Part shown: positions 5,661 through 63,753 of the stretch, one piece after another
Position numbering within the stretch: the first letter of the stretch is position 1
How the letters are laid out: every line of letters starts with the position of its first letter
Assembly: GCA_031835245.2 (NCBI GenBank)
Contig: JAVKOQ020000102.1
Location: 1 to 64,000, forward strand
Direction: 5' to 3'
DNA length: 64,000 nucleotides
From: Balamuthia mandrillaris
Lineage: Eukaryota
Notes under the pieces: model-generated
What the model saw: only the letters and a program-made list of their open reading frames with translations
Told to the model about the DNA's origin: nothing
Database searches by the model: none
Translations under genes and position numbers: made by a program

Positions 5661-5738
5661 ACCTAATTGTTTATTGTTCTCTACTGTAACGTTGGAAAAA
5701 GAGAAGATCTCCCCTTTGTACAACCTTCCTCTATTCCT

Positions 5739-6085
5739 CTACTTCTTCTTTTGTGGCATAGTGCTTTCTTTTTTCTGTATCAACAAAGATGTTTGCATGA
5801 CTGTGTCTGGATTAAGGCTGATGGCCTGGATGCCTTGTTCCACCAAGAATTCGGCGAATTCAGGATAGTCGGATGGTGCTTGTCCACAAATGCCAACATA
5901 CTTGCCCATGTCGTTGCAAACCTTGATCACCTCTGCTATCATGGTCTTCACGGCGTCATCCCTTTCGTTGAAGATCTTGGAAACGATGCCGGAGTTCCTA
6001 TCTACTCCCAATATCAGTTGAGTCAAGTCATTCGATCCAATGCTGTAACCTACATTGGAAAAATAGCGTGTGGATGTATTAAATT

Positions 6086-6132
<47 letters not shown>

Positions 6133-9077
6133 TAGAGAGAGAGAGAGACAAACTTCAGGAAGAGAGAGATAGAACTTTACCATCGAGAATATGAAGGAAC
6201 TGTTTGGCGAGGATCACATTGGAAGGGATTTCACACATACCCATTATCTGTAACCTTTTCTCTCCAGAGCCTTCTCTCTTTAGTCCATTCTTCTCCATTT
6301 CTTGGATGACCAGCTCTGCCTCTTTTACTGTCCTACAAAACGGGATCATTACAGAGAGGTTCCACAGGCCATACTCCTCTCGTATCTTCTTAATAGCTTT
6401 GCACTCCAACGAAAATCCATCCTGTGCAGTTCACAACAAGTGAGCAAACAACAGTAAAATTCAATGAGATGAAGATTACCTTGTAGTCCGGATCATAGTA
6501 ACGAGATGCTCCACGCCAGCCCAGCATTGGATTGTCTTCTTTTGGCTCGAATGTTTTGCCTACAGTAACATACAACGAAAAAAAAGTTAGGATGGTATTT
6601 TGTTTGGTTCACACATTTTAGGAGATGAAGCAACAGTTCAATACGGACCGCCAAGAAGACCGGCATACTCATCTGTTTTAAAATCAGAGAAGCGCAAGAT
6701 GACGCGTTTCGGAAAGAATGCTGCAGCAATCATGCCGATACCCTGGGCTAACTTCTCTACAAAAAACTCTTCTCCGTTTTTGTATGGCTTGATGAGCTGC
6801 TTTAATTCTTTTCTCTCTTGCTTGGATTTCACCTTCTTCGGACAAAGAAGTGCCATTGGATGTGCTTTGATGTGATTTCCTATGATAAACTCCATTCGAA
6901 CTAGTCCTGGATTGCAATGTGGCAATGAGCAGTGCTGTAGAACACAAGGGAAATCAAAATAATGCCATAACATACCAACTCCATCGCTGGGAATCGCCCG
7001 TAAATGGAACGCTGTTTCTGGATTAGCCAAGTTCATGCATATCTTGGTCTTTAGTCCTTTTGTAGCTTCGATGGTATGTTCTTCTTCTTCGAATTTGAGA
7101 GTACCATCGTATACAACACCAGCATCGCCGGAAGAGCAATCCACCGTCACTTGCTGTCCTGTTTTCACTACTTGAGTGGCACATCCACAGCCGACCACAC
7201 ACGGTATACCCAACTCTCTTGAAATGATTGCAGCGTGGCAACTTTGTGCACAAAGAAAAGGCGTGAGGAAAGGAAAACAAGAAGAAACAAACAAAGTGGA
7301 AGAAAAGACTAACGTTCTACCACCGCGATTGGTGATGATTGCTTTGGCGTGCTTGAGGATAGGCTCCCAGTCGGGATCCGTCATTTCGGTGATAAGCACC
7401 TCACCCTGCTTAAAGTCATGGATTTGGTCCACGCTCTTCAAAACTCGAGCCTTGCCTTGCGCAACCGACATTCCTACGCTGGTTCCTTTGCATAGAACCT
7501 TTCCTTTCTCCAGCAATTTGTAGGTGTGGAACTTGGTGATGTCCTTTTGGCTTTGTACAGTTTCAGGTCTGGCCTGAACGACGAACATTTGATTGAGAAC
7601 ACCATCCTTGGCCCATTCGATGTCCATCGGTGTGTGCTTCCCGTTCTTCTTGGAGTAATGGTCCTCAATGATGCACGCCCACTCGGCCAGTTGCATGATC
7701 TCGTCATCATTCAGACAGAACATGTCTCTCTTTTCTATGAAACATATAAACAAATAAAGAATTTTGGGGAGTGGGCGCAGGAAGAAAATAGGAACTCGTG
7801 AACCGAATAGCATCTAGATGAGAGAAAGAGAATGAGAGGAGGGAGAATAAATTACCTCGATCTGTGGTGAGATTCTTGGTGGTGGGCTTAGACGGATGAT
7901 AGACCATCGTCATTTCTTTGCTGCCCAACTTCTTCTGAATGATGGGTTTGCAGCCGTTGTTCATGGTCCCTTTGAATACCAGAAACTCATCCGGGTTAAC
8001 TGCTCCTTGAACAACGTTCTCTCCAAGGCCCCAAGCTGCTGTTATCAATACAACATCCTTGAAACCACTTTCAGTATCAATGGTGAAGGTCACGCCACTG
8101 CAAGCTTTATCGCTGCGAGCCATTCTTTGCACACAAATGGATAGTGCCACCTGGTGAAACAAAACAAAATGTAAGTATGGGTGAGACAACAAACAGAGAT
8201 AGAAGAACTGAGAGTTAAAGAAAAACGGAACCTGCATGTGATCAAAGCCTTTATCTATTCGATAATTGATAGCACGGTCGTTGAAAAGACTCGCCATGCA
8301 TCTCTTACACGCAGAAAGTAACTCGCCTTCTCCTGAAATGTTCAAATATGTATCTACAAAGATAACAAATGAGCACAAATAGAATAATGATGATGATCAC
8401 AGGCCGAGGAACACGAAGAGAAAAAAAAAAGGACATGAAGAAGAATAAGAAGAACAACAGGGACAAGCAGACGAAGATGAGCTCAAGCAGTAAAAGCAAG
8501 CAGACAAAGAAGCGAAAAAGAACAAGCAGAAGAAGCAAACCTTGTTGGCCAGCAAAACTTGCACCAGGCAAATCTTCAGCCGTGGCGCTGCTTCGAACGG
8601 CCACATCAATGTCCGTTTCCTCGTACTCCTTCCCTAGCCTCTTGTAATGTTCGCAGATGGTCTCCTCCAGGTCGGACGGCAGTTGCGCATTGAGGATCAA
8701 ACGACGGACCTCTCGGCCTCTCTTTCTCAGGTCTTTGGTGTCGCCTTGCTTCAACCCATCCAAAACCTCTTTGATCTTGTCCTCGATGTTGGCTTCTTTG
8801 AGGAAGTATCGATAGGCCTTGGCCGTGATGGCAAATCCATTTGGCACTTCGATGCCTGTAGACCATCGATTCAAAGCCAGACATTAAAAAAAAAAGTTCA
8901 GAAAAAGAAATGGAAGAAGGAAAAAAAAAAGCACGAGAAGAGTGTTAACAAACCCTTAGAGCCAAGTTCGCAGTACATCTCTCCTAAGCTGGCGTTCTTT
9001 CCGCCCACCAGCTCGACGTCATCATTGCTGATATCTTTGAACCACAGCACCAGCTCTTCCTTTCGCTTATCGGTCAT
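5739..9077 (-). CDS. ppsA: Phosphoenolpyruvate synthase (pyruvate, water dikinase), bacterial type, with many spliceosomal introns
   Basis: [76 protein letters not shown] (phospho-His), [38 protein letters not shown]. Confidence 0.95.
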
Positions 9078-9534
9078 TCTTGGGTTTGCTCTCTCTCTCC
9101 GCTGACCTCTCTTCCTTGCCGTCGTGTTCGCTTCGTTCGTTCTGTGTTCGTATCCAGCTGGGCTGACTCGTTTGCAAAGAAGAAAACAAACCTTCATAAA
9201 AAGGCACAAAAGAACGTCTCTCGACAGGCAGGCAGGCAGGCAGACAGGCAGGGAGCAAGAAGGAATAATAATGGAACAGAAGCGGCAGCAAACAGCGTGA
9301 CAATCGGAGGAAAGATGGCGCGTTGGTCTCCTTCCTGGCTGCAGAGCGCAGCGTTGGCACCTCTGCATGAAAACTCGGGTCCAACAGAACGAAAACCGAC
9401 CGCTTTGGCCATTCTAAGAGGAGAGGCAGCTTTGGTGTGGGACGGAACCATGGAACCTGGTTTCGTCTTCATCAACACTCAGTGGTGCATGCATTATTGA
9501 CTTCATTATAATTGTTAGCAAGAAGAAGAGGATC

Positions 9535-10474
9535 TTAGTCCTCCAGGTACATCTTTACTGGGTGAAACAGAAACTGCCCCGAGTCCATCCCTTTCTCCAG
9601 TTCTTCCAGACCGAAGGTGGGGCGATACCGCACATTGACTCCAGGGTAGTCCAGCTTCCCGGCGGTGTATCCATGCCTCTGCGACAAGGAAGCCAACAAG
9701 ACCTCGTGGAAGAGCAGCGTGTTGTGTTGGCGGGCGAAATCATCCACCCTTTGCAGCAGCCGCAGAGAGAGCCTGCAGATGACGTTGTACGTTTTGCACA
9801 GCTCCTCTTCCTTCAAGATGCCCTTTCCTTCGCCCCATAGGGGCCAATCTTCCTTGTTCTCGGCCTTGCAAACACGATGTGAAGGAGTAACCAGATCGGT
9901 GTCATCGTCGATGTAATGCCTGACCATCTCAGCCACTGCTGATGAATTAGCCCACCATACATCGTCCTCCACAAACCAAACGTGAGGGAGCTTCTGCTTG
10001 TGCGCCCAGAATAGTGCCCTCTCCCAACTGGTGACGGAGAGGCTTTCGCGTTTTTGATGGTTTTGCTTGTAAACTGATGATAACAGGTTCACCCATCCCT
10101 TCTCTTGAAGAGGTCGATTTGGTTGCCATAGAACCAGGTTCTGTTCCTGTCTTGCCATCGGGTGAAGGTTGTTCTGAGAATGCAAGCAGATAAAGGCATT
10201 CACCCCATTCTCCCGCAGGGCTTCCGCCCTGTTGACGATATCCTCGGAGAGCTTTTTCGCAAGGAGGACCAACACTGGCTTTGGTGGGTCTGCATGGTGT
10301 ACCAGAAATGAGTAAAGAAACAGCCCTTCCAGTTCGATAACCTTACATACCTTCGCTTGGCTGTGGTGAGACTGGACTGTCCCCCTTGTCATAGGGGAGC
10401 AACATAAAGACGTTGAAGACAACAAACACAACCATAAACAGAGCAAAACCCCTAAAGACTAGATTTGTGTTCAT
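9535..10474 (-). CDS. Putative type II membrane glycosyltransferase-like protein (2 exons: 10474-10351, 10289-9535)
   Basis: Exon 1 MNTNLVFRGFALFMVVFVVFNVFMLL is a signal anchor missed by the ORF track. A 61-nt intron (GTATGT...GCAG) restores frame. VWFVEDDV acidic motif and terminal FHPVK resemble GT-A fold enzymes. Confidence 0.6.
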
Positions 10475-10854
10475 GGGTGCTCTCCTCCTCTTGATAGCCT
10501 AAACTCTCGGCTCCCGTGTGCCGCATACTAACAAGCCTGCTTTGGATCCAGAGAACCACCAATGGATAATAAAAAAAAGTTACAAACCCAACGAAAACCT
10601 CCCTTGATTTAGGCACAAGGCCATAGCCCGTGTCGAACTTGCATGACGTGTGCTCGAACCCAGAGAGGCCTCTGCTGCTGCCTTGGTAATGCTGCATTAC
10701 ACACGCTCATTCATTAGAGGTAATTAGCCGAAGGATCTTTCGGCGATTTGTTTTCAGAAGAAAGCAAGGTACAGGAGGAAGTAAGGAAGCGCTGAATCAT
10801 TCCACCCCGGCACAAGCCAACGCAACAAAGCGTACAGCCTCTTAACGTAACAGA

Positions 10855-11682
10855 ATGACCACATCCTCTCTCTTGCTTGCGACTCTCTTGCTCTCGGTGG
10901 CAATGCCTATAAGTCATGCCGCCGAGCAAACCGTCCGAGTGAAGAACAACCTGCCCGTTTCTAGCTGTGCCAACGGCAACTCCTTGACTCTCTTTCTAGA
11001 CTTTCCAAACCAACAAAACGTCCCAAGAGGAGAGTACTACGACCACAGCGGTGACTTTACCAACGCTCCTGGCATTGGCATTCAGATTAACAACTGGTAC
11101 TGGACGCAAGAGGAACTTCCGGTTCAGGTTTGGTCCCTCTCCTTCTTTGCCTCTCTTTTCACTCCCTAACCACCCCCCCCCCTCCACCCCACCCCCAAAA
11201 CAAAACTAAAGGAAGGCAATGGGGACGATCTACATCAGAATCCCGACAACTCTGGCGCCCAGTTCATGCTCTCTGATGACTGTGAGCTCTCCTATGAGGA
11301 TCCCTGGTTTGGACTGGGCATTCAGACATGGCTGGTAGCGGACGTGCAGGCAGCCATCGATCCCGAGAGTGGGCTGTGCACCGTCACCATCTCTGGCAAT
11401 GCGGACACGGACAGCGTCACTCCCGATTGTTGTGCTCCTCCTCTTTTCGAGAGTGGAGTTTGTGATGACGAGACGCAAACATGGGGCATCACGAATAACG
11501 GACGACCATGGCCTCCAACAGGAGAAGATGATGATGGAACTACGGATGGAGCTGTTGATGGAGATGAAGATGGCACAGAGGATGGTACGAATGACGGCGA
11601 TGATGGCGGTGATGGCAATAATGATGGCGACAATGACGACGGAGGATCATCAGCACGCATCCATCCATTTACCCTGTATTAA
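10855..11682 (+). CDS. Secreted Cys-containing protein of unknown function with Asp/Gly-rich tail (2 exons)
   Basis: Signal peptide MTTSSLLLATLLLSVAMPISHA; intron from 11128 (GTTTGG) to about 11210; acidic tail GEDDDGTTDG... Confidence 0.7.
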
Positions 11683-12102
11683 AACACCTGTTCAGATATT
11701 CGTTTTGCTGCTGTATGTGCCCGTTTTTTCCGGCTTGCGCACCAGGAACAACCTTACCGATGAAAAGACGCAGCGGGCAGCTCCGGCGGGGCTTGTGTGG
11801 TGGTCCTCCAGAACGATTGCTGCTCCCCTTGCGCTCTTTTTCTGCTCCATTTTAATATCACATATCTATAAAAGGATATAAATGTCGACAAAATAACCAT
11901 AAAAGGACCTCGGAACAAAAAATTTGAACTCGGCCCATTTCCTTTCCGCGACACTACTATAGCAAGGGGCCGCTACGCGCAACTGAAACCACGAAGCAGG
12001 AGGAGGAGGAGAGCCGCTCCACACTTTGCTAGTAGCCAAGGCCACAGAAGTAAGAGAGACTCCCCCCACCCTCCTTCTTGCCTTCAGCACTCCAACCAAA
12101 GG

Positions 12103-14416
12103 ATGAAAGGAGCGAGCAAACCGGTAGCTGCTGCGCAGGCCACTGCCCGGTCGCGGCCTGGCAAGGACGAACCCGGCGCTGGCAAGGCTAAGGGAAGCCA
12201 TAACAACAAGAAAGAGGAGGGCCAGGTGTTGGGTCGGTTCAAGAACACAAAGCAAGAGGTAGCGATGGGTCCGATGGCCAACGTGCTTGCGGGAACCGTG
12301 ATGCTGGCTTTGCATGGCTGGTTCCTGGCCTTTTTGCAGTCAGAGTACGAGGCCGTCCAGCTGAAAGAGGGCCACAAAATAAAGGACTACGTGGCCATGT
12401 GGTCCCCTATTTTCATCGGCTCCATCATTCTCGAAGTTGGTTCGTTCTTACTTCTTCTTTGTATCTTTGCTTAGCTTCTATTCTCCTTCTTCTCCGCAAA
12501 CCGTTTTCTTATGTACGCGGTACTTTCAACCAACACCACCGAAAAGCATGGTCTTGGTACAAAGGAAGTGCAGTATATCGCACCAACGACTCTGTCTCTT
12601 CCATGTCGCTCGGCATCTATTCGATGCTCTTCAAACATTTGTGGGTCGGTGTGGTGACCTTTACTCCTTATACTTATGTGTACCAAAACTTTGCCCTTAC
12701 ACGACGCTTTGAGGACGGCGGTATGCTTGCCTGGTGGCTCATGTTCGTTTGTGTTGAGTTGGGCTACTATTGTAAGTATTTCTTTTTTCTTTCTTCTATG
12801 TTCTTTCTTCGTTCTCTTTGCTCCTCTCTAACTTTCGCTTGCTGCTTCTCTCAATCTGGTTTCCGTTTCTTCTTGTCTCCAAAAGGGTATCACAGAACGG
12901 GACATACAGTGCACGCCTTTTGGGCTATGCATTCTGTGCATCACTCATCAGAAGAGTACAACCTCTCAACAGCACTGCGTCAGTCTACTCTGACCTCCTT
13001 CATATCTTGGCTGTACTACGTTCCGTGGGCATTGTTCTTTCCTCCCTCTCTGTTTTACATACACAGCCAGTTCAACCTGCTGTACCAGTTTTGGATTCAC
13101 ACAGCAGCTGTGGGCAAGCTTGGCCCCTTGGAGTGGATTTTGAATACGCCTAGTCAGCATCGTGTTCATCATGGCAAGAATGAGTACTGTATTGACAAGG
13201 TGCTTATAACTTTTCGTTGTTACTAGTTTTCGGATGTGTGTGTTCTGAATCTTAACCTCTACTCTGTTAATAGAATTACGGGGGCACGCTATGCATCTTT
13301 GATCGTTTGTTTGGAACCTTTCAAGAAGAGCTGGACGAGGTAAATGATTTCTCATTTATCAACATGCCTTACTTCTTACCTCTCAACTCAATCTGTGATG
13401 CCGACAGGTCCCGATAGCATATGGAACAATCCATCCAATCAATACATGGGACCCAATCGAATCCAACATTCATCCTTGGAGAGCCATTTTTGCCAACATT
13501 CGGTTCGTCTATCGCTTCTCTCTCTCTCTCTTTGCTTTCTTCTTTCTTCTTTCTACCAAAAGTTGAGACATTGATAGACAGTTAGCGTATCATTTCATTT
13601 ATCTGAGATTCTTCAAAACATGCAATAGGAAAGTGAAAGGATTCAAAAATAAGCTGTTGTGTTTATTTAATGGACCAGGATGGATTCCTGGCAGTCAGCC
13701 TCATGCAGAGTACCCAATCCCGCCGTGCTCCACTGATGCCATGGTCAAATACAACCCCGCTTTATCTGCTCGGTACTGTTGATTCTTTTTTATTTTTTCT
13801 TCCTTTCGTCTTCTTTCATGCTTCTTTCATCTTTGACACCTCGATTTTCTGTTGTCTCTACTTGAAAAGTGCTCAGTGGTACATAGGGGTTCACTGCTTG
13901 CTAATGGTCATTATTTTCAACATGGCTTTGATCGCGGAATCGGCCATGCCTTACTATTGGTTCTTCTTGTTTAATGGTTATGTCGTCTGGGGCTTGTACA
14001 ACCTTGGTGCCATCAGTAACCGCAAGACATGGGCTTTCTTGATGGAGATAACGCGGATCATCGTTGCCATTCCTTTGGGATGTTGGACTGTTGCTTTGTA
14101 TCTCTCTTCATTCGTTGCAGGTATTTAACCTTTTTTCTCATCTTCTGCTGCTTCCCTCTGCTTCTATCCCCCATGTAGAAACCAAAAAAAAACTCAACAC
14201 AAACAAAACGCAGAAGTGGAGTTGTTCTTGGTTATGAGCCATCCTCTGTGCATTGCAGTTTATGGAATCGTTGCGGTGAGTGCGTTGTTGCTTCTCTCCT
14301 GCAGGAAGGAGTTGAAGGTCGCTGTGCAGAAGCACGAACTGGGAGATATGGACCTGGTGCAAGCCGAAAAGGACCAGGCCCTCCAGTTGCAGCTGCTGCA
14401 TGCAAAGCGTGATTAA
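12103..14416 (+). CDS. AGMO: Alkylglycerol monooxygenase (fatty acid hydroxylase/sterol desaturase family)
   Basis: His boxes YHRTGH, HSVHHSSEEYNLSTALRQS, NTPSQHRVHHG, IDK/NYGG..IFDRLFGTF, GPGWIPG; multiple TM segments. Confidence 0.9.
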
Positions 14417-14944
14417 AAACACGTGCTCATGCACACGCTTCTTCTCTCTCTCTTTCGCTCTCGATCTCATGTCTTCTCTCCTGTCTTATTCCGAATCTCC
14501 TATCCTCTCTCTCATCCTTCGCTCTCATTCCATTGCAGCGAAAATCTGTCCTCGCTCTCGTCCATACCAAAAAAAGGCAGGGGCGCCCCTTTGGCTTAGT
14601 TTGGGCTTTTTTTATCTATTATTTTTGTTTATTGGAGCGTTCGTTTTTCTTTGCTTCTTTTTTTTTTTTTTTTTGTTTGTTTTAATCTTGGGTGTGTGGT
14701 CTCACAAGCGTTGCAGGGGAAGAAGTAGCGAAAGAAGATAGCATCGACAAACAAAGTGAGTTGGTGAACCGCTCCCCCACAAGGCTCATTCGAGCTCATT
14801 TTGTTGGGCAGGTGTGTTTCTTTGTATTTCTTTTTTTTTCATGATAAACGCCTACAAGACGAGAGGAAGGGCATTAAAAAAGAAGCTGTTTACGCACCTC
14901 AACGCCGATACTCTGTACAGAATACTGCCCCCGCAAGATAGAAA

Positions 14945-17900
14945 ATGAAAACATCGGTCAAGCGCAAAAGCAGCAAGGCCTTGGACGTTCGCCCTCCTGC
15001 AGAAGCCATATTGACGAGCCCCGAAGAAGAGAATAAAGAGGAAGAGAAGACCAAGGATGAACATGAGGACCAGAGGAAAGGCAGCGGCTCTACTATACCC
15101 ACCAAGAAAACAGTGAAGCTCGTGGTATCGGAAGGTGTGCCCGAGGATAAACAACGTCAAGAGGAGGAAGAGGATAAGCAACAAACTACGGATAAGGCCT
15201 CCAAAGAAAAAGAAATGGGGAAAACGAGCGAAGAGGTTGACAAAGATGATGACGCGGAGAAACGGCGCACCGCCCTGAAGAACGAGAAGAACCCCAAAGC
15301 ATCCGCTATCATCAAAGGCTCCTCTTCTGCGACAAACTTGGCCTCTAGTCAGCTCCCTCTGTCCACTTCCAACTCCTCCATCTCTCTCACCGTCACAAAA
15401 GAGAAAGAGAAAGAGAAAGAAAAAGAGGCGCTTCCTTCTTCCTCTTCTTCATCCCTTCGCGATGGCGACACCGCCACCTCTCAACAACAGTGTTCAGAGA
15501 CCCCTTCGTCTGCTGCGCCATCCAACAAAGAATCAACTGCTCCAACAGCCAACCAAGAGCTCCAAGAAGAGCTCGCAGTCCTCCCTTGCATCGGTGATAG
15601 TGTTGGTTCGTTCTCGCCGTCCACTTCTGCCCACCACTCTTCCTCCTCTTCCTCTCCCTCTTCTCCCTCCGCTGCGACCAAACCAACAGCATTGTTATCG
15701 GTGGATAGCTCAGAAGGAGGAGTGCTTCCTTCTTCCTCCTCTTCGAGCGGGGGAGGGTTGAAGGCTCCCGTTTCTCTTTCCTTCCTTCGAGGCGGAAGCA
15801 GCAAAGACAAAGCGGACAAGGAACGAGAGAAGGAGAAGGATAGTGGTGGCAGCGCTGGTAGCAACAAGGAAAAAACGGAGAAGGAACGAGAGAAGGAAAA
15901 GGAAAGGGAGCGGGAGAAGGAGCGAGAAAGAGAGAAGGAGAGAGAAAAGGAGAGGGAAAAGGAAAAGGAACGGGATCGTGAGCGCAAGAAGAAATTTTTG
16001 GAACTCTCCAAGAAGGACCAGAAGAAGTTCAAGAGGCTGCTCGAGGAATGTCCCTCCATAGTCAACCATCCACTCCGTACGCATATTTCTTGCTGTTCTT
16101 GTTAGCTTTTTTTTTTTTTGCTTCTCTCTTCTCTTTCCTCTGGTGCCTCACCATTATTGTTTATTGTGGAACACCGTATAGTGTTGCCGGAAGAAGTCAA
16201 GTACTTATGGAAGCACTGGAACGGACAGGTCTTGGCCTTTGTCCGCAGCGAGAAGCACAAGGCGCTGGTCGGCCCCGACAAGGAAGAGTGGGGCAGGTAC
16301 CTCTCCGAATATGCTGCCTTTCCTTTGGCTTCTTTTCTCGTCTCCACCCCCTCTTCCACCCTCTCCGCTTCGGGTTCGGGCATCGGAGGGACTGCTGCGT
16401 CTTTGTTGCCAAACCCGAGCCCTTCCCCTTCAGCCTCCTCTTTGCTGAACAACACGGCAGGCATTCCGTTTGCCACCGCAGCCACGTTCTCGCTTTTGTT
16501 TGATCTGCTGTTTCAGGCGGTGGACAGCAAGTGTGATGGCCTGGTTGACTTTGAAGAGTTCCTTTCCACTTTGGCTGTTTCTGCCAGAGGCACTCTTGAC
16601 GCTCGCCTTGAACGTAAAGTTTTTTTCTTCTGTCTTCGTTCTTCTTCTTCTTTCTTTAAGCTTCATTCGTTTCACACTGTTTTGCTACAGTGGTGTTCCG
16701 GTTCTTGGACAAAGAACAACAAGGACAGATCCAAAAGGGAGAAACCAAGGAGCTCATGGTGGGAGCTGCCGAGTACTTCGCCATGATATCAAGAGGTGGC
16801 GCCCACACGCCAACCTACTCCTCATCCCAGGAGGCTGCTGCTCGCAAGAAGGACTCTGATGCTGCTCTGATGGTGGATGCCTTGTTTGGAGCGAAGAGCT
16901 CCCTTTCTTTAATCTCTTTCAAACAACGGTTTGCCTTCCCTTCCTTTCTCTTTCTTTTCTTGTCTGCTTCTCCCTCATTTGTGCATACAAACAGAGCGAT
17001 GAGCAACGAGGGAGTACAAAACTGCTTTCACCTCTTCGAATGTGCATTCGGAGGCCTGGCCAACCGCATGGAACTGGAATTGGGCAGCAGAAAGACGTTT
17101 GGGAGGGACTTGATGTATGTGTTGAAAGGCGAGCGGCGGGAGATACCCCTCATCATGGAACAAACAGTAGCCTGTCTCATGCCTCGTACGCTCTCTCTCT
17201 CTCTCTCTCTCATTCTCTCTCTCATTCTCTCCTTCTCTTTGTCATATTCTTATAATATCTTGTACTTTCGACCAAAAGAGTTGGAAACAGAAGGCCTGTT
17301 CAGGCTTTCAGGAAATGCAAAGAGCTTGAACCAAGTGAAGGAAAAGTACGATAGCGGAGAGCCCGTCCCTCTCTCTCAGTACAGCCCACACGTGGTCGCC
17401 GATCTGCTCAAAACGTTCCTTCGAAACCTTCCGGAACCTCTCTTGACTTATGCTCACTATCAAAGCTTTATAGACTTGTACAATAACGAAGACTCTCGCA
17501 CCCAGTTTCTGAAGTTGAGAGTGCTGTTGGCGTCTTTGCCCGAGGCAAATCTCAAGATATTCAAGTTTCTCGTTGCCTTCCTTGCTGAAGTACACAAACG
17601 GTTCGTTTTCTTCTTTCTCTTCTTCTTCTTCTTCTTCTTCTTCTTCTTCTTCTTCTTCTTCTTCTTCTTCTTCTTCTCTTCCTTCTTCTGGTTTTTTCGT
17701 TCATGCTTTTCCTTCTATCTGTTTTTTTACTCTCCTGATGTATTGCATATATCATGTAGGTCGGACAAGAATAGAATGGACGCGTTCAACCTGGCGACTG
17801 TATTTGCGCCATTAGTGCTGATGCGGAAGGACGAGACGGATGCTGTGCGAATGGTATCCGAGTCAAGGGCCACTATTGACATTCTTCTCAAAGCCATAAC

Positions 17901-20900
17901 CTCCCACGCTGAACTCTTTAACGAACTGACCGAAGACGAGAGTGACAAGGAGGAGCAACGATGGAGAGAAGGCCGCAACAAACGCAGCGAGGAACTGCGA
18001 AAGTACGTCAACGAGAGTAAGCACGCCATCACCGTCATCTTTGATCGCCTCTGCAGCGAGGTGGAGGACAAGGATCGAGAAATAAGTATGCTCAGAGAAA
18101 GGATCAAAGAGTTACATCTCATCATCACCAGACAGAGGCGTATCATCGTATCTATGGACATTGGCGGACCCGGCCCTGCCTCTTCTTCTGTTGGAAGTAC
18201 TCCTGAACCACGTGGTTTCGCTTCTGTTTCATCTTCTGAAAACGCTGGTCTCTCTCCTTCTACTTCCGGACGAAAAGGAACAAAACATAAACGGGGCAAG
18301 AGCGCGTCCTCCTGGGATGATGGCTCTGAGAGCGAAGGCAGCAACAGCAGCCGAAAGTCCAGCGACCTTCAGTCAACTGCCGACGATCTAACTTCGGCTG
18401 ATGAGACGCCACCTGTATCGGCTTCTCGTGCGGCTTATTCAAAGGAAGAGAGCAAAGCTCAACAAGAGAAAACGGGCAAAAAGAAGAAAAAGAAGAAAGG
18501 GAAGCAACAACAGCAAGCACAACAACCCTCTCTCAAAGTCAGTGCTGAAGGAGAGAGCGAAGAAGAAAAACCGGTAGCATCCACTACAGCTGCCACCACA
18601 ACAGGCGCAACTGGAAGCAAACTGCATCGTCATAGAAGCAGCATTGACTCTGCTGCCAGTATTGCTGACATCGGAAAGGCGAGCAAAAGAAAGCGAAAAT
18701 CGTCTGCTGCTGCCGTTGTAGCTGCCACCACCTCGAAGGAAGAAAGCAAAGACTCTACTGAAGGTAAAGATGGGGATACAAAGACCCAAAAGAAGGCAGA
18801 ACCGGCAATAACAGTTGCAAATGAGGAGATGATCGGTGATGATGAGGTAGAAGAGGATGAGGAAATGGATGCTCCGCCCCCCAAGGAAGAGAGTGCCGAT
18901 AGGAGGAGGACGACCAAGAAGAAGACAAAGGCGAAGAAACAGAAGGACAAACAGGAGAAAGACAAAGAAAAGACAACGGAACAAGAAAAAGAACACCAAA
19001 AGGAAAAGACGACAAAAGATCAGGAGAGAGAATACGAGAGACATAAGGAGGATGAGCCAACAGAAGCATTCAAGCAAGATGTCACTGAAGCAAAGGAAGA
19101 AGAGGAGGAGAAAAAAGAAGTACCTGCGCATGAAGAAGACCAAACTGATGCTGAAGCGCATGGTGCCCCTACAGAAAAGCAAGACGAGACAGAGGAAACA
19201 GAGAAGGAATCAAGCGGGCCAACTGAGAGTAGTATAGATGCAAACCAAAAGCCGGGTAAAGGTCATTTCTCACGTTGTCTTCTTGTTTTCCACTTCTGAT
19301 GTTGTAATCCCCTATAGGAGAAGGCATTCAAAAGTTCTTGACCTTGTACACCAACAAAATACAAGAAGAGCTGGAACAGGACCTCAGAAAAAAAGTAGAA
19401 CTTCAGCGTCAGGGCCGAGTGGCCGACAACGATCGAAAGGTCGGCATTCTCTCTCAAATACAAGCCATAGAGTTGGAAATGAAAAGAAAGGAAGAGGAAG
19501 CCAGACGACAGAAAGAACTAGAGGCGCGCTCCCTCTCTCGAGAAGAAAGCTTGAAGAAGGTGCTGTCTGCCAGAAAAGGTTCCAAGGAGGACGCCTTGTC
19601 CGTTCCGCTTACTCCTACAAGCGCTTCAACATCTGCTTCTTCTTCCAGTTCTTTTTCTTCTGCTACTGCTTCTTCTTCGGAGACCAAAGAAGCAGCAGAC
19701 ACGACAGAGGAAGAAGAGAGGAAAGAGGAAGGGGAGACAGAAGAAGAGAAAGAGGAAGACACAGCACAACAGGCAAGCTCTGCAAAAGAAAGCAATGAAG
19801 CATTGGAGCCATCGACAAAAGAGAAAGATGCAGGCCTCTCCAAGAAGACCGCTAATAAGAAAAAACGAGAAAAGCGTCGGAGCGTGTCTCTGCGTGACCT
19901 TCGGCTCATGAATGCTTCCGACAAAGAGGAGGAAGAAGAGGAAGCAAACGAAGAAGCGGTTAAAGAAACCGCTAATGTTGCTGTACCAATACAAGCAAAG
20001 ACTTCTAAGAATAAGAGTGATGACCCGGCCACGGCTACAGCTGAAACGAAGAAAGACAAGCAACAATCCACCTCTTCTTCCGGCTCGTCCGTGGTGACAG
20101 AGAAGAAATCGGAAAAGAAAAGCAAGAGCCGAAGACAAAGGCACGATACTACTGCAGTTGTTTCTCTCGAAGGAAAGCAGAACAAAGGAGGAAGTAAAGT
20201 GGCAACCCCTTTGGAGAAGGAGGCGACAGCGGAGCCTAAACCTGTGACCAAAGGCAAACACGCCCGCTCCAAGTCCATAACTTCCTCGTCTGGAGAGGAG
20301 AGCGGCAATCCTTCTTCCTCCTCTCCAAGCTCCTCTCCTCGTCAGCTCATCTCTGTGGACTCTCCTGCGAGCACCACCAAAGCGGGAGCTTCACGAAGAC
20401 AACGAACCAAGACAGCTTGCGAGACCAAGGAAGCCGCTGCTCAACGAACGAAAGAGATGACAGGAGAGACCACCCCTTCCGCTTCTGCTTCTGCTGCTTC
20501 TTCTTCTCCTCCTCTTCCTTCATTATCCTCCTCTGCTTCAGTAGGATCACCAACCACTAGAAGCAGCGCCGCAACCACCATTCCTGCCAAGAAGAAAAGG
20601 CCAGACGCTGGAGCAAAGGCGCACACGCTTCGCATTCCTCGCAATAGGGCTCACGCCAAAGAAGACAAAGAGAGCCAAGACGACCGAGAGAAAAGCAACA
20701 GCGACAGAGCGGGCAAACCTGCCCAGGATAAAGAGGCCGCCGTGGCTGATGTCTCTTCAACCTCTCCTCCTTCTCCCTTCGTCACCGCCAAAGAGGCTTT
20801 CTCTCCTTCGGTCGGTGACTCTCCTACCAAAAGGAAAATGGGAGGAAGCATGATCATTGTCCCTTCTGCCCAGAGAGACACGACCACTTCTCCTGGTAAC

Positions 20901-20969
20901 AAAGAAGACGAAGGAGGTTGTGGTGCTCACATGTCCAACAAGAAAAAAGCGAAAGAAGGAGGAGCGTGA
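14945..20969 (+). CDS. Large RhoGAP with EF-hands and long charged low-complexity regions
   Basis: EF loops DSKCDGLVDFEEF and DKEQQGQIQKGE; RhoGAP motifs ETEGLFRLSG (Arg finger), VADLLKTFLRNLPEPLLT, NRMDAFNLATVFAP. Confidence 0.85.
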
Positions 20970-21040
20970 AAACAAACAACGAACAACGAATGATGTTGTT
21001 GTATTTGAAGATGTAATGACCCAACTTATAAATGTTCTTG

Positions 21041-22140
21041 TTATAGCGGTAAACGAAAGGGAAATGATGTGGTGTCTCCGTTCGCCATCTCGACAATGTT
21101 CTGATGTTCCACTCCGCCTCCAATGGATGAAATCTTTTCTTTTCCTTTCCCCTCCTCTTTGTCTTTCGTCGCTTCCTTTTCTTCTCCAATTTCATCATCC
21201 TCTTCTTCTCTCCAATAATTCTCAGAGTAATCTAAAAAGATTTGCTGACCTCTCTCGATACGGTGTAATGCTGTGACGATGGCTTGTTCTGCTCCTCTAT
21301 CAAAGAAGCATTGAAGTTCTGCATTTGGAGTTGCGGAGTGGTTCATCATGCCGCCAAAGTTGCGGTAACGCTTTGCATCCAGCGCCACGCCTTCCACTCC
21401 CGATACCACTGTATAAGCTTTATCCTTTATTTCGTCTGTAGAGGAATAAAATGGATGAGATCACGAAAAACAAAATACGGAATGAGGAACCGAGCGATGA
21501 GAGCAGCAAATAGAGAACAGAAAGATACCTTCAGCAGTAAGACAACCGCCATAACGAACGATAAAGTCGCCAGCCTCGAAGTCTTTCGCCGCAAACACAC
21601 CATATCCGACCCTATCATCAATCTTTGCCAAGATGACGTTGTGTTGGTCGCCGGTGCTCTCCTCCCAAATATGTTTCTGGTGCCTCTTTCTAAACTCCGT
21701 GTCAACAGTATTGATAGAGAATCCACTATACATCAACTCCAACAAATAGTCGCTTGTGCAACGAATGAACGGACAAAATGTCACGCTGAACAATTTCTGT
21801 TTTTGTATTTTTGTTGTTTGTTGAGTAAGCACAAAAACAAAGGAGTGGAGAACGCACTTCGAATTCGGAAACGGGCCATTGAGTATCAACTGTTTGTGTA
21901 TCGGGCCGCCACAGCTGTAAGTAACGTGGCATCATGTGGGTGGGTGTTGTAGGCACCATCCCCAACATTCGTGCATAATCTACGTTGTCATCCATTCGTT
22001 TTTAAAAGAGGAACCCAACAGAGACAAGCGAACGACAAGAAGACCAACACAAGTCAAAGACAATATAAGAAAGCGTGAAAGAAGAGAATGGATAAAGGCG
22101 AGGGCAGAGAGCAGAGTCAGGAGGTTAAAGAAAACAGAAG

Positions 22141-22185
<45 letters not shown>

Positions 22186-22897
22186 CTAAAGGTGTGGCAA
22201 AAAAGTTATCAAGCTTGTCTATATCAGCATGATAGCGCCGCAGCAACAGCTCCAACACTTCAGCGCTCTGCACAAAGACCGCAAAGTGGAGCGGGGTGAA
22301 GCCGGTGATCAGATCGTTCTTGTTGATGTCGAGTGAGGCCGAAGAAGAAGCCGCTGCGCTCAGCAAAGCCTCCACCATGCGAGGCTTACGTGAGAGCACG
22401 GCGTAGTGCAGCGCTGACTTGTGCCTCTCGTCGAGGCGAGGCGGAGGCAGCGTGTTGCGGATGACGCTGAGCTCGTGCTGGAGGCAACTCTCCATAGCTC
22501 TGACGCTGCCGGAGAGAAGCCGCCGTTGGAGCGAGGTTTGATACTCTCCTGTCGTCTATTTGTTGTTGTCAAAGAAGAAGGATTAGGGAGAGATTGGTGA
22601 AGAAGCGCACTTTCACTCACTTCATTCTTGTTGGCTAATACTCACCTCATCGATGATGGATTTGGCCTTCGCACTGAAGGCACGACCTACGTTCTCATCA
22701 AAACTAACGTTGGAGAGATAAAAAACCTTTTGAACGCGATCAATAAGTTGCAGTGTGAAAACAGAAAAAAAAAAGGGAGGATAATCTACCCGCCACAACA
22801 ACGGTGAAGGTTTCTCCTCCAACAGCCGATTATCGCTACCAAAATCTCTCTTGAACCTTCGCCACCAGCTCTCCTCCTCTCCTTCTGTTCTTTCCAT
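21041..22897 (-). CDS. Ankyrin-repeat + SET-domain protein (putative lysine methyltransferase)
   Basis: Ankyrin: SALHYAV, GFTPLHFAV, ATPL. SET: VGYGVFAAKDF..GDFIVRYGG, DAKRYRNFGGMMNHSATPN, GQQIFLDYSENYW. Confidence 0.85.
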
Positions 22898-22960
22898 CTC
22901 TCTGTGTTTAGAAAAAAGACAGAAAGGGATAAAGTTTGTTTTTTTCTTTAAAATAAAGTT

Positions 22961-23128
22961 TGGTGGGGGGCGACTAGCACTCCCCCACCGCTACCATAAA
23001 TTATGCTGTCCAAACATCCATGAAGGATGTTGGTCCGCAATCCACTTCCTACCGGCTGTGCAATGGTAGGGTGGATAAACGAAGAGCACCGCCTTGTTGA
23101 TCGCAGCAACTCCCAGCAAGGTACGTAT
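22961..23128 (-). ncRNA. U1: U1 spliceosomal snRNA (about 168 nt) with variant 5' end AUACGUACCU
   Basis: Helix H UGCUG/CAGCA; SL-I with loop GAUCAACAAG (U1-70K site); SL-II with loop AUUGCAC (U1A site); SL-III CCAACAUCC-UUCAU-GGAUGUUUGG; Sm site AAUUUAUGG; terminal SL-IV GGUGGGGG...CCCCCACC. Confidence 0.95.
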
Positions 23129-23153
23129 GAGACTTAGAGTTGTGCGTTGTGGC

Positions 23154-23190
23154 TATTTATAATCGCGAGAACCAAATTTTGATTATGGGA
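23154..23190 (-). promoter_or_regulatory. snRNA promoter: DUSE/USE-like TCCCATAA (23190-23183) and TATAAATA (23161-23154)
   Basis: TCCCATAA at -62..-55 matches the Dictyostelium upstream sequence element WCCCAYAA in sequence and position; TATA box at -33..-26 from U1 +1. Confidence 0.8.
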
Positions 23191-23356
23191 CAAACCTTTT
23201 CCCCTTTTATGGTTTATTTTCATTTTCAGCGCCGATTCTAAAGAACGACTCCTCAATTAGCAGCAGAAAATGTTTCGTCAAAAAAAAAAAAATAAATGAA
23301 AGATGTACATTCACGTGACCCAAAAATCCATAGCGCACCTTCCTCTCCATCCATCA

Positions 23357-25667
23357 TCAATCATTCCAAACAACGCACCACCGTTTCTTCAATGGGAGAG
23401 AACGTCCTTCGCCTTCCTTGCCCTCTCCTTCTTTCTCCTCCTCTGAAGTATTTGTTGACTGTGCTGCTTTCAGTTGATCTTCGGACAGAGAAGAAGAAGA
23501 TGAAGAGGAACCATTGGAAGCATCTCTTTGCTCCTCCCCTCCTTCTTTGCTTCGCTGCTCTCCTTCTCTTCGTTCAGTCTCACCGCCGCTGCCAGGAGCA
23601 ACTATGATACCGTTCGTCGATGATGTTTGCCAACGTTGATGATCAAGATTCCCTTTGTCCTTGTTCTCGCCATCATCACTATTTTTGTTGATGTCATTGT
23701 TGTTGGTTCGTTGGCGTTTGCGTAAAGGTTCATCCATTGCTGCCATCTTCACCAAAAGCTGCTTTTTCTTTTCCTCATCAATATGCTCCTGGTGCTCTTT
23801 TTTGTCATCGGTCCCTTTGTCGAGGGACACTCGGATGCCATTGGTAACCTTCTTTTGTTGCCGATCTTTGTTGTCGTTGTGGTTATGATTGTTGTTAATA
23901 TGTACATCATGATCTCCGTTTCTCCTCCGCTCTTTCTTGTTCGTCGTTTCAACAACATGCTCTGTTGCTGAGGCTTTCTTTCCTCCTAGACTGTCACGAA
24001 GTGGTTTTTGCTGTTTTTGCAGCGAGTCTGCTCGTTTACGTTTCAGAGTTTCTTCTTCGTGACGCTCCTTCTCTCTTACTCTCTCTGTTTCTGTCTTCTC
24101 TTCACCATCTGCTCCTTTTCCGCGAGATCTCTTCAACCGCTCTCCGTTGTTATTGTTGTTCTCCGTTCCTTCGGTTTGTTGTTGAGCATGAGATGTAACA
24201 TCTTCGCTTGTTGTAACTACGTCCATTTTTGAGTTGTTGGCATGTTCTTCCGTCTTCGTTGTAGAAGTTGCAGATTTAGTATCTTTTCGTTTGTCGAGAG
24301 GAACATCCTTTCGTTCAGTGATTTTATCATCGGCGCTTTTATTTCCATTGTTGAGCTTTTTTGTTGTTTCGCCTCTGTCGTCCAGCTTTTGGGCTTGTGC
24401 GAGTTGTAGCATCAGCTCCTCTTTACGCTTTTGTCTTTCTCGCTCGCGTTCCATGCGAATAGCCCATTGCCGCATGCGCAGCTGTTCTCGTTCTTCTCTT
24501 CGCTTCTCCCTGTCCTTAACCCGTTTCTTTTCCTGCATTCGCTCCCGTTCTCTCAATCGTTCGCGTTCCCGCTTTCGCGCCAAACGTTTCATTCTTCGTC
24601 TCGTTTCTCGTTCCTTCTCCTCGTCTTCTCCATCTGCAGCAGAAGCTTCCTCCTCTTCCTCTTCTTCAGTTTCTTCAGGTTTTAGCTTTTCCTTCTCACC
24701 CTCCTTTTCTTCTTGTTCATCATCTTCTATGCGTCTTTTGCGTGTCGTTACCGTCGTTGTTCTCGAACGTATTTTCGAGCCACCTCGTCCTCTGGTGGCG
24801 CCACCTCGTCTTCCTCTACCAGAGTACCCTCTGCCTCTTCCTCGGCCAGTTGTAGATTTTTGAGATCGTTTATTGAGTTTGTTGGTGGCCCCTTCGTCTT
24901 CCATTTCTTCGGCTGCTTCTTCCTCCTCCTCCTCCTCGTCGCTGTCCTCATCGCTGTCAGAATCTTCTTCCACTTCTTCTTCCACTAAAGCCGCTTCGGC
25001 AACATCTTCCTCGTCTTCTTCTTCTCCTTCGTCTGCATTCCATTCGGTTTCTTCTTCCTTTTTCTTTCTTCCAGCGCGTCTTTTCCTTCCGTCCTCTTCC
25101 TCTTCTTCACTTTCTGCTTCGAAAAGGAACTTGTACCATTCAGCTCGTACTTGTTCTTCTTCCGGCTCCTTTTTCCTTCTGCCCTTCTTTCGCTTATTAT
25201 TGACAATCGCAGGCTCATTCTTTGTTTCCTCGCTTTCTTCCGAACTATCTTCTCTTTCGTCGCTGTCAGAACGCGTTTTACGTTGTTTCTGTTTGTGCTT
25301 CTGCTTCGCTTCTTCTTCTTCCTTTAGTTTTTTGTTTTTTTGCTTTCGTCTGTCTGGTTTGCCGCTTCCGTCTTCTTGCATGGCCATTTTCCTTCTCTTG
25401 CGTACTTTCTCGCTTTCCCAAACAAATCCGATTGAGTTAAGCATCTTAATTCTTGTTTGGCTGTAGCGAGGCGAGTTTCTGCGTGAGCGCTGATTCGTGC
25501 ACCATTTGCCCAGTTGTCTTTCCTTGGCAGAGCGAGAACGATTCATCGCTGATACGTCGCAGTGCCCATGCTTTTTCTGTAAAATAGGTTCAAGGTCAGG
25601 AAAACAAAAAAGAAAACAAATTACAACATGAGTAAGCGAGCAGGCGGAGAAAAAAAAAACAGACAAA

Positions 25668-31169: not shown

Positions 31170-32909
31170 TTAGGAGACAAGTGCTTCTGGGCAGGGACAA
31201 CCATGCTCACGGAGATAGTTTAGCACTTCCTGATTTCCCTGCTGTTGAGCATTGGAAAACGTTAGCTCGTCCCAAGGACACCCGTTCTCTCTGGTCCATT
31301 TCAGCACTTCCAAATGCCCCCCTATAGCAGCACATGCACAAGTGAACTCATTCCACGGACATCCGTGCTCTTTAGCCCATTTCAGCACTTCCAAATGGCC
31401 ATTCAAAGCAGCGCAGCAGCAGGTGCTCTCGTTCCAAGGACACCCGTTGTTCCTGGCCCATTGCAAGACTTCCAAATTCCCCCCACCGGCAGCACGCGTA
31501 CATGTGTCCTCATTCCACGGGCACCCATGCTCTTTGGCCCATTGCAGCACTTCCAAATGGCCGTCCTGAGCTGCCAAGCAACTGGTTTGTTCATCCCACG
31601 GACAGCCGTGCTCTCTCACCCATTTCAGCATTTCCAGGTTGCCATTCCCTGCCACATTGGCACAAGTGCATGTGTCCCAAGGGCATCCGTGAGTTCTGGC
31701 CCATTTCAGCACGTCCCAATGCCCATTCCGAGCTGCAGAGGAACAGACCTCTTCGTCCCAAGACCATCCTTGCTTTCTCGCCCATTTCAACGCCTCCAAA
31801 TGGCCGCCTTTGGCTGCTGCACAGCACGTTAACGGGCTGCTATCAGCACAGCCATGTTCCAAAGCCCACTGTAGCACTGATACATGGCCGTTCTCAGCAG
31901 CAGAGATGCAAGTTTCCTCGTCCCAGGGACACCCATGTTGCCTTGCCCACTTCAAAACTTCCAAGTGACCGTTGAAGGCCGCTATGGTGCATGTCCACTT
32001 GTCCCAAGGGCATCCTTGTTCCCGTAGCCACTGCAACATTTCCAGATCATTATTTCGTGCTGCTTCCACACATGTCGCTGTGTCCAACGTTCCACCATTC
32101 TTGATGGCCCACTTCAACACCTCCAAATGTCCTTTCTTGGCCGCCTCATTGCAAACTTTATAGCCAACCGAACATCCGTGCTTTCGTGCCCATGTCAGCA
32201 CTTCCAAGTGTCCACCACCTACAGCAGCTACTCCAATCTGAAGAGACCAGGGGCAACCATTTTTTCTTGCCCACTTCAAGACCTTCAAACGTCCTGTTGA
32301 GGCTGCTGCCATACAAGTCTGCTCGTCCCAAGGGCATTCATGCTCCCTGAGCCATTGCAACACTTCCAAGTGCCCGCCTCTGGCCGCCGCGCTGCATGCT
32401 CTCGCGTCCCAAGGGCATCCTTGCTCATGCAGCCACTTCAGCACCTCCAGATGACCATTACTTGCCGCCATGGCGCACATCTCTGCGTCCCAAGAGCATA
32501 CTCGCTCTCCACAGGGCAACCATTTCAGCACTTCCAGCTGGCCTTGAGAGGCTGCAGCTGCACAAGTCCTTGCATCGAGGGTGTACCCATTGGCCACTGC
32601 CCACTGCAACATCGTCACGCTGCCGCACATCGCTTTGATCGCCAACTTTTGTCTGAGCTGTAGAGGAGAGCAAGAAAACCACCGACGGCAAGTTCTGGCA
32701 GCCACGGCCACCCAGGCATCCGGCAGGAAGCCAAGCACGTGACAGAGCAGTTCTCCCGGTAACAACGCTTCTATCCAGCACGGCATGTCGCCTAATCGGT
32801 CGGAGGAGGAGGAGGAAAAGTGAAGCTGCCCGGCGTCCTTTTTTCGCTTGTTCATGTTGGAAGTGTCCCTGGTTCTCCTCTTGGTTGCTTTCTGGTTTTT
32901 TCGTTTCAT
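31170..32909 (-). CDS. Intronless F-box-like + ankyrin-like repeat protein (giant-virus-type GCPWD repeats)
   Basis: LLPGELLCHVLGFL...AARTCRRW (F-box-like) followed by more than ten roughly 37-aa repeats TC..AA..GHLEVLKWARE.GCPW(D/N). Confidence 0.88.
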   Translation of the reverse strand: MKRKNQKATKRRTRDTSNMNKRKKDAGQLHFSSSSSDRLGDMPCWIEALLPGELLCHVLGFLPDAWVAVAARTCRRWFSCSPLQLRQKLAIKAMCGSVTMLQWAVANGYTLDARTCAAAASQGQLEVLKWLPCGERVCSWDAEMCAMAASNGHLEVLKWLHEQGCPWDARACSAAARGGHLEVLQWLREHECPWDEQTCMAAASTGRLKVLKWARKNGCPWSLQIGVAAVGGGHLEVLTWARKHGCSVGYKVCNEAAKKGHLEVLKWAIKNGGTLDTATCVEAARNNDLEMLQWLREQGCPWDKWTCTIAAFNGHLEVLKWARQHGCPWDEETCISAAENGHVSVLQWALEHGCADSSPLTCCAAAKGGHLEALKWARKQGWSWDEEVCSSAARNGHWDVLKWARTHGCPWDTCTCANVAGNGNLEMLKWVREHGCPWDEQTSCLAAQDGHLEVLQWAKEHGCPWNEDTCTRAAGGGNLEVLQWARNNGCPWNESTCCCAALNGHLEVLKWAKEHGCPWNEFTCACAAIGGHLEVLKWTRENGCPWDELTFSNAQQQGNQEVLNYLREHGCPCPEALVS

Positions 32910-33190
32910 TTTTATTGCAGCATGTGCAGCAAAACACGTCCTCGGTCCCCGCGTCGATTCGGGGAAACAAAGTTTTTTTGCTTTCTTTCTGCTAAAAAGA
33001 AAAACGATCGTCCAAAGGAAGATCCTCTGATTCCCTCCTCCAATTGTAAATCAAACGCTCTGCTTTGATTAAGAGAGAGGAGAGAGTAGAAGATCCAGGA
33101 GAAGAGCTAGGAGAAGAGAGCTTCATGGGAGAGGAGAGGAGAGAGGAGAAGAGAGAAGAAGGAAGAAAGAAAGAAAGAAAGAAGAAAGAA

Positions 33191-62785: not shown

Positions 62786-63267
62786 TCATCAAGGAATGGC
62801 GGTATGTCCGGAATGTGAAGCATCCATTGGAATGCCGTCGTGTTGAATTAATTAATAATTACACGAAAAAAATGATTGAGATCTTCCCAAAAAAATCTCA
62901 TATTTGCACAAAAACCAGATTTTAATTTCGGTTTCTCTGATAAATAAACCAGACAACTCTTTCCAATTGGTCATTGTACTGCTACAAGATATCCGATCTG
63001 CCGATCGCCGGCACCCTGACGACCCTCCGCTCAATCTCGTTGCCGATGGCAGGCTGGCGCAAAGAAATCGGCTGACTTTGGCATCGGCCTTCTGCCGCCG
63101 CACAACACATGTTTTGTGACCAAACACCGAATCGAACGGCAACAAAAGTCAAAACAGCAAAACCTCCGCCTCTCAATTTTGTCTTCTTCTTCCCTCCTTT
63201 TTTTTTTCCCCTTTGTTGACAATAAGCAATAACACAGCGTTAGCACACTCCCCACACGCACCACCAC

Positions 63268-63753
63268 ATGGACCTTCTTCCTACCATAGAGCTGGACGGC
63301 GATCGCATCAACGACCTGGACAGCTTCTTCGACGAGGTCACCGACAAGCTCCTCTCCTCCAACAGCAAGCCCTGGCCTCGCACCCTCGAAGCCTTTGACA
63401 AGCTCCTCGGCGGTCGCCGCTTCGCCAACACCCACAGCAACACCACCAACTCCAACAACAACGTCTACCAGTACCACTACAACAGCGCCATCCCGCGGCA
63501 GGGCGTCTGGCGGCTGCGCTGGCTCAACTCCAAGCGCTCCCAGAAGCAGCTGGGCTATGCCGCCACGGTGCGTTGGCTGGAGGGGCGCCTGGCCGAGATG
63601 CACCCCTCCAACAGGGAGCTGTGGCAGGGTCGGCTCCAGGCCGCCAAGAACGGGAAGGGCGACACGCTCTTTGACCAGCTGGTGAACATGATCAGGCAGC
63701 ACGCCCCGTTGGTGGAGATCTCGGACGAGGGAGTCATCCTGGAGCTTGCCTGA
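63268..63753 (+). CDS. Barstar-family (ribonuclease inhibitor-like) protein, intronless, bacterial-like
   Basis: IELDGDRINDLDSFFDEV...WPRTLEAFDKLLGG...LRWLNSKRS..LGY..TV..L......HPSNR....L.AA..G.G.TLFD.LV..IR. Confidence 0.8.
   Translation: MDLLPTIELDGDRINDLDSFFDEVTDKLLSSNSKPWPRTLEAFDKLLGGRRFANTHSNTTNSNNNVYQYHYNSAIPRQGVWRLRWLNSKRSQKQLGYAATVRWLEGRLAEMHPSNRELWQGRLQAAKNGKGDTLFDQLVNMIRQHAPLVEISDEGVILELA

Follow-up and report, generated by a model that had tools for sequence, protein, structure and literature searches.

The described U1 small nuclear RNA closest to the one analysed here is that of Mastigamoeba balamuthi, an intron-rich amoebozoan in which, according to the text of Roy and Bowser (2022, bioRxiv 10.1101/2022.06.08.495308), U1 carries ACGUAC and introns begin with GUGCGC. 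The same text gives AACAAAC for Entamoeba U1, cites Physarum copies with ACAUAC alongside standard ones, and terms the amoebozoan changes independent; the names Acanthamoeba and Balamuthia are absent from that text, a statement that does not extend to its figures and supplements. The available part of Davila Lopez et al. (2008, PMC2396436) gives ATACATACC for Physarum U1, a canonical U1 for Dictyostelium and an unchanged U6 ACAGAGA box for A. castellanii, Physarum and Entamoeba, with AUACAGAGAAG retained in A. castellanii U6 (its supplement 3), and one table row, as we read it, has 0 U1 for A. castellanii. The pairing register that places U1 nucleotide (nt) 5 opposite intron position +4 is that of Parker et al. 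(2023, PMC10581693), whose available text describes yeast U1 as invariant (227 of the 230 Saccharomycotina in which it was found) and ties the +4 base to METTL16. According to the available sections of these two sources (10.1101/2022.06.08.495308, PMC10581693), yeasts, Thecamonas and Mamiellales combine a +4 pyrimidine with a canonical U1. We found no report of G at nt 5 (G5; likewise U5 and A5) in Balamuthia or Acanthamoeba in the accessible literature, whereas subscription papers, Rfam full alignments and supplements may contain one; the accessible parts of PMC2846911 (with supplements), PMC11347168, PMC13326754, PMC4053784, PMC12404691, PMC2114752 and 10.1101/2020.10.12.336362 held nothing on the U1 described below, and the literature passages searched held no text on the major-donor consensus of A. 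castellanii. The G5 variant is thus already known from another amoebozoan, and its occurrence in Discosea is the new point.

The window, that is, the whole 64,000-nt stretch of Balamuthia mandrillaris contig JAVKOQ020000102.1 that was analysed, contains one U1 gene of 168 nt on the reverse strand (22961..23128). The Rfam check proposed in the first-pass annotation was run on the window and matched RF00003 at 23128-22961 (-) with 75.3 bits (gathering score 69.5; E 7.9e-17), over the whole model (positions 1-166 of 166), and this was the sole match reaching a gathering score. U11 snRNA, which reads AUAUCCU/GUAUCCU donors, was ruled out since the best Rfam match here stays U1, and three weak plant-miRNA matches far under the gathering score in the E-value scan were set aside as chance. 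The gene opens with ATACGTACCTT; its 5' splice-site recognition sequence (nt 1-11, 23118..23128, -) is AUACGUACCUU, compared with AUACUUACCUG at the start of the RF00003 model, and has G at nt 5 (23124, -) and T at nt 11 (23118), both as the first reading of the sequence had it. The single-stranded 5' end is therefore present, with the canonical ACUUAC replaced by ACGUAC at nt 3-8, and the complementarity to GUACGU claimed for it is supported. The Rfam alignment also contains the four-way junction closed by helix H and stem-loops I-IV, with the loop GAUCAACAAG of stem-loop I (nt 27-36, 23093..23102, -), the loop CAUUGCACAG of stem-loop II (nt 64-73, 23056..23065, -), the Sm site AUAAUUUAUGG (nt 125-135, 22994..23004, -) and stem-loop IV (22961..22990, -), the last also defined by an alignment of six U1 genes. 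We take the two loops, on established knowledge, to be the sites of the U1-70K and U1A proteins, respectively, and the earlier description of an intact U1 with all hallmarks agrees with the full-model match, the two loops and the Sm site.

Comparison with the described systems revealed that the window U1 and Mastigamoeba U1 share the hexamer ACGUAC and the G facing intron +4, although Mastigamoeba balamuthi and Balamuthia mandrillaris are different organisms despite their similar names and belong to separate phyla (Evosea/Archamoebae and Discosea/Centramoebida, respectively). Mastigamoeba donors are GUGCGC whereas those of Balamuthia are degenerate, and the Mastigamoeba U1 is predicted whereas the body of the Balamuthia U1 is covered by RNA reads. 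The U1 of Physarum polycephalum (X13841) is likewise altered at nt 5 and fits +4 U donors, but it has A5, and standard copies are reported alongside it. Entamoeba U1 is also amoebozoan and recoded to atypical donors, but with two changes, near-uniform GUUUGU donors and intron-poor genomes. U1A-D of Dictyostelium discoideum (RF00003) have all structural elements and a DUSE-type upstream element, as the window gene does, but begin with the canonical AUACUUACC.

Upstream of the gene, the elements noticed in the first-pass annotation were found again: a DUSE-like TCCCATAA at -62 (23183..23190, -) and a TATA-like TATAAAT at -33 (23155..23161, -). The pattern [ACT]CCCA[AT]AA has 13 matches in the window, of which only the one upstream of U1 is TCCCATAA. 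Each of the six aligned U1 genes (the window gene and five metagenome genes described below) has CCATAA some 60 nt upstream, and TATAA/TACAA is present at -32 to -35 in three of the five others. The Dictyostelium DUSE lies about 60 nt upstream and was not expected outside Dictyostelia, according to the available text of Kjellin et al. (2021, PMC7919456). The U1 gene is intergenic, with a long ORF ending at 23360 on one side and a SET-domain gene on the other. The ALG3, SET and Mak11 genes of the window are 100% identical to Balamuthia mandrillaris proteins over the aligned length, as is an acyl-CoA oxidase exon to a protein of the same species. Elsewhere in the window, a PEP synthase gene (5700-9100, -) with nine introns is 57% identical to cyanobacterial PpsA and looks like an intronised bacterial-type gene. 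An intronless 626-codon ORF (31170-33050, -) encodes 27-residue W...GCPW repeats in an 81-nt tandem unit, in our view similar to ankyrin-like repeat proteins encoded by giant viruses of amoebae, and another intronless ORF lies at 63244-63753 (+), the start of which presumably resembles barstar-family proteins.

Two raw RNA runs (X18 and X19) and two contig sets were mapped onto 6200-25600. Read depth beside 23116 was 238-263 (X18) and 458-470 (X19) per orientation, while bins of the PEP synthase gene reached 16 at most and most other bins were lower still; the U1 transcript is abundant. Loose read ends inside U1 at 22991, 22996, 23106 and 23116 were sequencing adapters, and the inserts are therefore 110-125 nt of the lineage-specific body of the window U1 itself. 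Although this is the deepest locus by far, no difference in the U1 gene appeared among the 40 listed of 373 differences. The RNA evidence is for the gene body, since numerous molecules stop at nt 13 and the listed differences leave out those close to the ends of reads; the depth sums the window copy with any identical copy. A DNA contig of another sample (X3 record 7) that spans the gene differs in seven letters somewhere along its length. Another run (X8), marked "DNA?", gave contigs that skip introns and therefore stems from RNA, of a strain that differs from the window by several percent. From its sequence and transcripts we conclude that the window gene is a real, transcribed U1 snRNA gene, with a cap, protein binding and action in splicing that are predicted.

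U1-like patterns in which nt 5 is any base but U were sought in metagenome contigs, a design that excludes canonical U1 and so gives no denominator. Of 18 loci, 12 represented five distinct U1 genes: four with G5 (L003/L008/L017, L007/L010, L009/L012 and L015) and one with A5 (L001/L002/L013/L016). Five loci without U1 structure (L004, L005, L011, L014 and L018) were left out as chance matches, as was L006, an animal-type U1 cluster; the U1 there (L006:3717-3882) has A at nt 5 and is clustered with U2, another U1 and a histone stem-loop. Eight of the 12 retained loci reached the Rfam gathering score, and L007/L010 and L009/L012, under it, were called U1 by motifs and alignment. Viral contigs gave no U1-pattern match, and a search for cap-methyltransferase homologues gave a single 15-residue hit. 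The five G5 genes, the window gene included, are 50-62% identical, yet nt 1-10 are invariant among them. In the six-gene alignment, two-sided changes were found in 24 of 37 pairs (helix H, 4/4; stem I, 9/11; stem II partly recovered), a number reached by 0 of 500 shuffles, with a structure derived from the same sequences. The L015 U1 shares its first 16 nt with the window U1, and the exon flanking it is identical at 41 of 42 residues to A. castellanii Neff XP_004335719.1; the lineages of L003, L007 and L009 are putatively amoebozoan, judging from the upstream element.

These genes bear directly on the suspicion that G5 is a sequencing error or that the window copy is a pseudogene. The RNA and DNA reads cover the gene body and not nt 5 directly, and U1 trace reads with a stray ATACGTAC occur in lamprey and Daphnia sets, according to the available part of PMC2396436. 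Against this, the same 5' end recurs in the Acanthamoeba-like U1 and three more lineages, structure and promoter are intact, and RNA depth is high. An error at nt 5 appears unlikely because four other U1 genes, from metagenomes and 50-62% identical, carry G5, and we regard this explanation as a whole as largely refuted, with a very small residual probability.

Donor sites in Balamuthia were placed with a spliced protein aligner that follows the GT/GC-AG rule alone, with no donor weights; with cyanobacterial PEP synthase as query it recovered exactly all four read-supported introns of the PEP synthase gene. Of the resulting 53 introns, eight were placed by reads or spliced contigs, 35 by proteins identical to Balamuthia ones, and ten by homologues alone; the 35 protein-placed introns are annotation-derived, and many were confirmed by foreign homologues. 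Introns at 12645 and 52171 were dropped before this count owing to poor alignment, and that at 10350 was kept outside the statistics. All 17 donor hexamers quoted in the first-pass annotation are in place; seven are among the 53 independently placed introns and an eighth (10350, -) is backed by a spliced contig. Strong +4 A is typical of animals and plants, with about 70% in human, and it is clearly absent from Balamuthia donors, in which position +4 is C in 18, T in 22, A in 11 and G in 2. Of the 53 donors, 26 have A and 20 have T at +3, 27 have G at +5 and 34 have T at +6; the most frequent hexamer, GTTCGT, is found in seven, GTACGT in one, and GTACGC and GTAAGT in none. Pairing at +4 is accordingly possible for G5 in 40 of the 53 donors, for U5 in 13 and for A5 in 22. 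The U at nt 11 has no matching preference at -3 (A 18, C 18). Comparison of GTNNGN hexamer counts in the window and loci with a Markov expectation was uninformative, being swamped by non-donor GTs. Among acceptors, 11 of 53 end in AAG (two read-supported), often after a run of A, and introns have their T/C-rich tract rather toward the 5' side, by a hand count.

The abundance of +4 pyrimidine has to be read against intron composition. In intron interiors, T makes up 50% and C 27%, and therefore neither the 40 pyrimidines (75%; background 77% in interiors and 83% at +7..+20; p 0.7-0.9) nor the 18 C (34%; p 0.16-0.29) were significantly enriched, and +4 C was as frequent in real donors as in 428 decoy GTs (p 0.75). 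Thus, the earlier statement that many donors carry a pyrimidine at +4 stands as a count, but its list of donors was selective and there is no excess over the intron background; +4 A (11/53) lies slightly over background (p 0.009-0.03). Of the 27 +5 G donors, 10 have C at +4, where intron dinucleotides would predict 20% (p 0.033), and two have A (p 0.024), both p values uncorrected and the former from one of several tests. The predicted pairing of G5 was stronger than that of U5 by 1.27 kcal/mol in real donors and by 0.42 in decoys, a difference confounded by flanking pairs, and predicted pairing separated real donors from the 428 decoys about equally well with G5 (AUC 0.935) and U5 (0.930).

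The donors beside other non-U5 U1 genes gave a different picture. The seven L003 donors (GTACGC, GTACGT, GTATGT, GTACGC, GTACGA, GTGCGC and GTGCGT; six placed by alignment to bacterial homologues and one by frame) have C at +4 in six, and both L015 donors (GTCCGC and GTACGA) have it, so that eight of nine carry +4 C; these GTRCG-type donors fit G5 well. A clear +4 C preference, the Mastigamoeba-type trait, is thus present on these two contigs, whereas in Balamuthia +4 C is not over background and a weak excess is confined to +5 G donors. The co-evolution of U1 and donors suggested in the first-pass annotation accordingly fits L003 and L015 but is not supported by the Balamuthia +4 position itself. 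Elsewhere, +4 C was found in one of nine donors of L007/L010 and in two of three of L009 (3/12 together), placed by weak alignments or by eye, and in four of four on the A5 contig L016 (by eye and frame), where A5 cannot pair with C. The observed/expected CpG ratio was 1.06-1.15 in the contigs with strong +4 C and 0.64-0.77 in those with weak +4 C.

This parallel with CpG, together with the dependence of Balamuthia +4 on intron composition and the +4 pyrimidine of yeasts, Thecamonas and Mamiellales despite a canonical U1 (in the sections cited above), favours the view that G5 is tolerated rather than co-adapted, the +4 base being set by base composition and U6/METTL16 and U1 nt 5 being minor for donor choice in these amoebae. 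We consider this rather improbable: G5 has been retained among genes only 50-62% identical, for which selection would be needed, and all three reported amoebozoan changes, as far as the available text describes them, fit a +4 pyrimidine.

The A5 gene raises a further alternative, namely a set of U1 paralogues (U5, G5 and A5) with a canonical or A5 copy elsewhere in Balamuthia and donor classes divided between GTAAH and GTHYGY. Balamuthia donors do form two groups: -1 G and +5 G are anti-correlated (p 0.028), and +4 A accompanies the lack of +5 G. The latter point, +4 A in 9 of 26 donors without +5 G against 2 of 27 with it (p 0.019), speaks for divided classes, although U6 pairing also explains the +4 A class. 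The G5 gene of L003 (1638-1803, +) and the A5 gene of L016 (1234-1399, -) are the closest pair, 71% identical; their contigs have a tetranucleotide correlation of r 0.88 (three pieces of the window among themselves, 0.84-0.91), and the A5 gene and an L003-type G5 gene share an assembly prefix in three of the four assemblies containing the A5 gene. One amoeba-like organism likely carries both, which lends the paralogue idea some indirect backing, and Physarum has standard and modified U1s according to the text of Roy and Bowser (10.1101/2022.06.08.495308). In Balamuthia, however, no paralogue at least 90% alike was evident at 3% of reads among the 40 listed of 373 differences, a survey blind to copies less than 90% alike and to differences at the 5' end only. 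We therefore give the paralogue set a minor share of probability, somewhat above that of mere tolerance.

The explanation that we favour, and consider fairly probable, is that the window gene is a transcribed and likely working U1 of the major spliceosome of Centramoebida, whose G5, able to pair with either C or U at +4, was matched to ancestral GTRCG donors and is compatible with the relaxed donors of Balamuthia. G5 would pair with +4 C by Watson-Crick pairing or with +4 U by wobble, replacing the usual A, and would have been inherited at least from the ancestor of Balamuthia and Acanthamoeba, where it may have matched GTRCG donors of the type still found on the Acanthamoeba-like and L003 contigs. 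Balamuthia donors would since have loosened to G|GTWYGT or a weaker consensus, with introns opening directly into T/C-rich sequence, which would be why three quarters of donors can still pair with G5, against one quarter for U5; U6 has probably stayed as it was. We counted in favour of this explanation the full Rfam match, the RNA depth, the invariant nt 1-10 amid two-sided changes in the stems, the 5' end and flanking exon of L015, the L003 and L015 donors, the 40 of 53 Balamuthia donors open to G5, the +4 C among +5 G donors, the retained AUACAGAGAAG of A. castellanii U6 and the Mastigamoeba precedent, and against it the background level of Balamuthia +4 C and pyrimidine, the slight surplus of +4 A, the tiny gain in AUC, the mixed donors of L007/L010 and L009, and A5 on L016 amid +4 C.

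Discosea and Evosea lie on opposite sides of the amoebozoan root and are separate phyla in the NCBI taxonomy; with G5 in Discosea, the recoding is present in each of the two amoebozoan phyla sampled and may be of old date instead of an isolated event in Mastigamoeba. A bolder version, which we put forward tentatively and hold to be less likely true than false, is that the purine at nt 5 dates back to early Amoebozoa, with one early G5 shared by Discosea and Evosea, the A5 of Physarum and Entamoeba arising from it by transition, and some amoebae keeping G5 and A5 paralogues that read +4 C and +4 U, respectively. Dictyostelium would then have reverted or lost a paralogue; repeated convergence is the alternative to a single ancient G5. 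In the sources as available, the U1 5' end is near invariant even where donors changed at +4, as in yeasts, Thecamonas and Mamiellales, and the reported exceptions we found are amoebozoan only and treated as separate events. The G5 genes of Balamuthia and of the Acanthamoeba-like contig carry the exception into a second phylum and a laboratory organism, in which an allele swap could test which of the two, U1 nt 5 or U6, determines the +4 preference. G5 may also explain the apparent absence of A. castellanii U1 from the earlier screen (PMC2396436, in its available part), and in Balamuthia it persists after the donors relaxed. If so early an origin were true, the published cases of "independent co-evolution" would amount to a single change of the splicing code across the supergroup.
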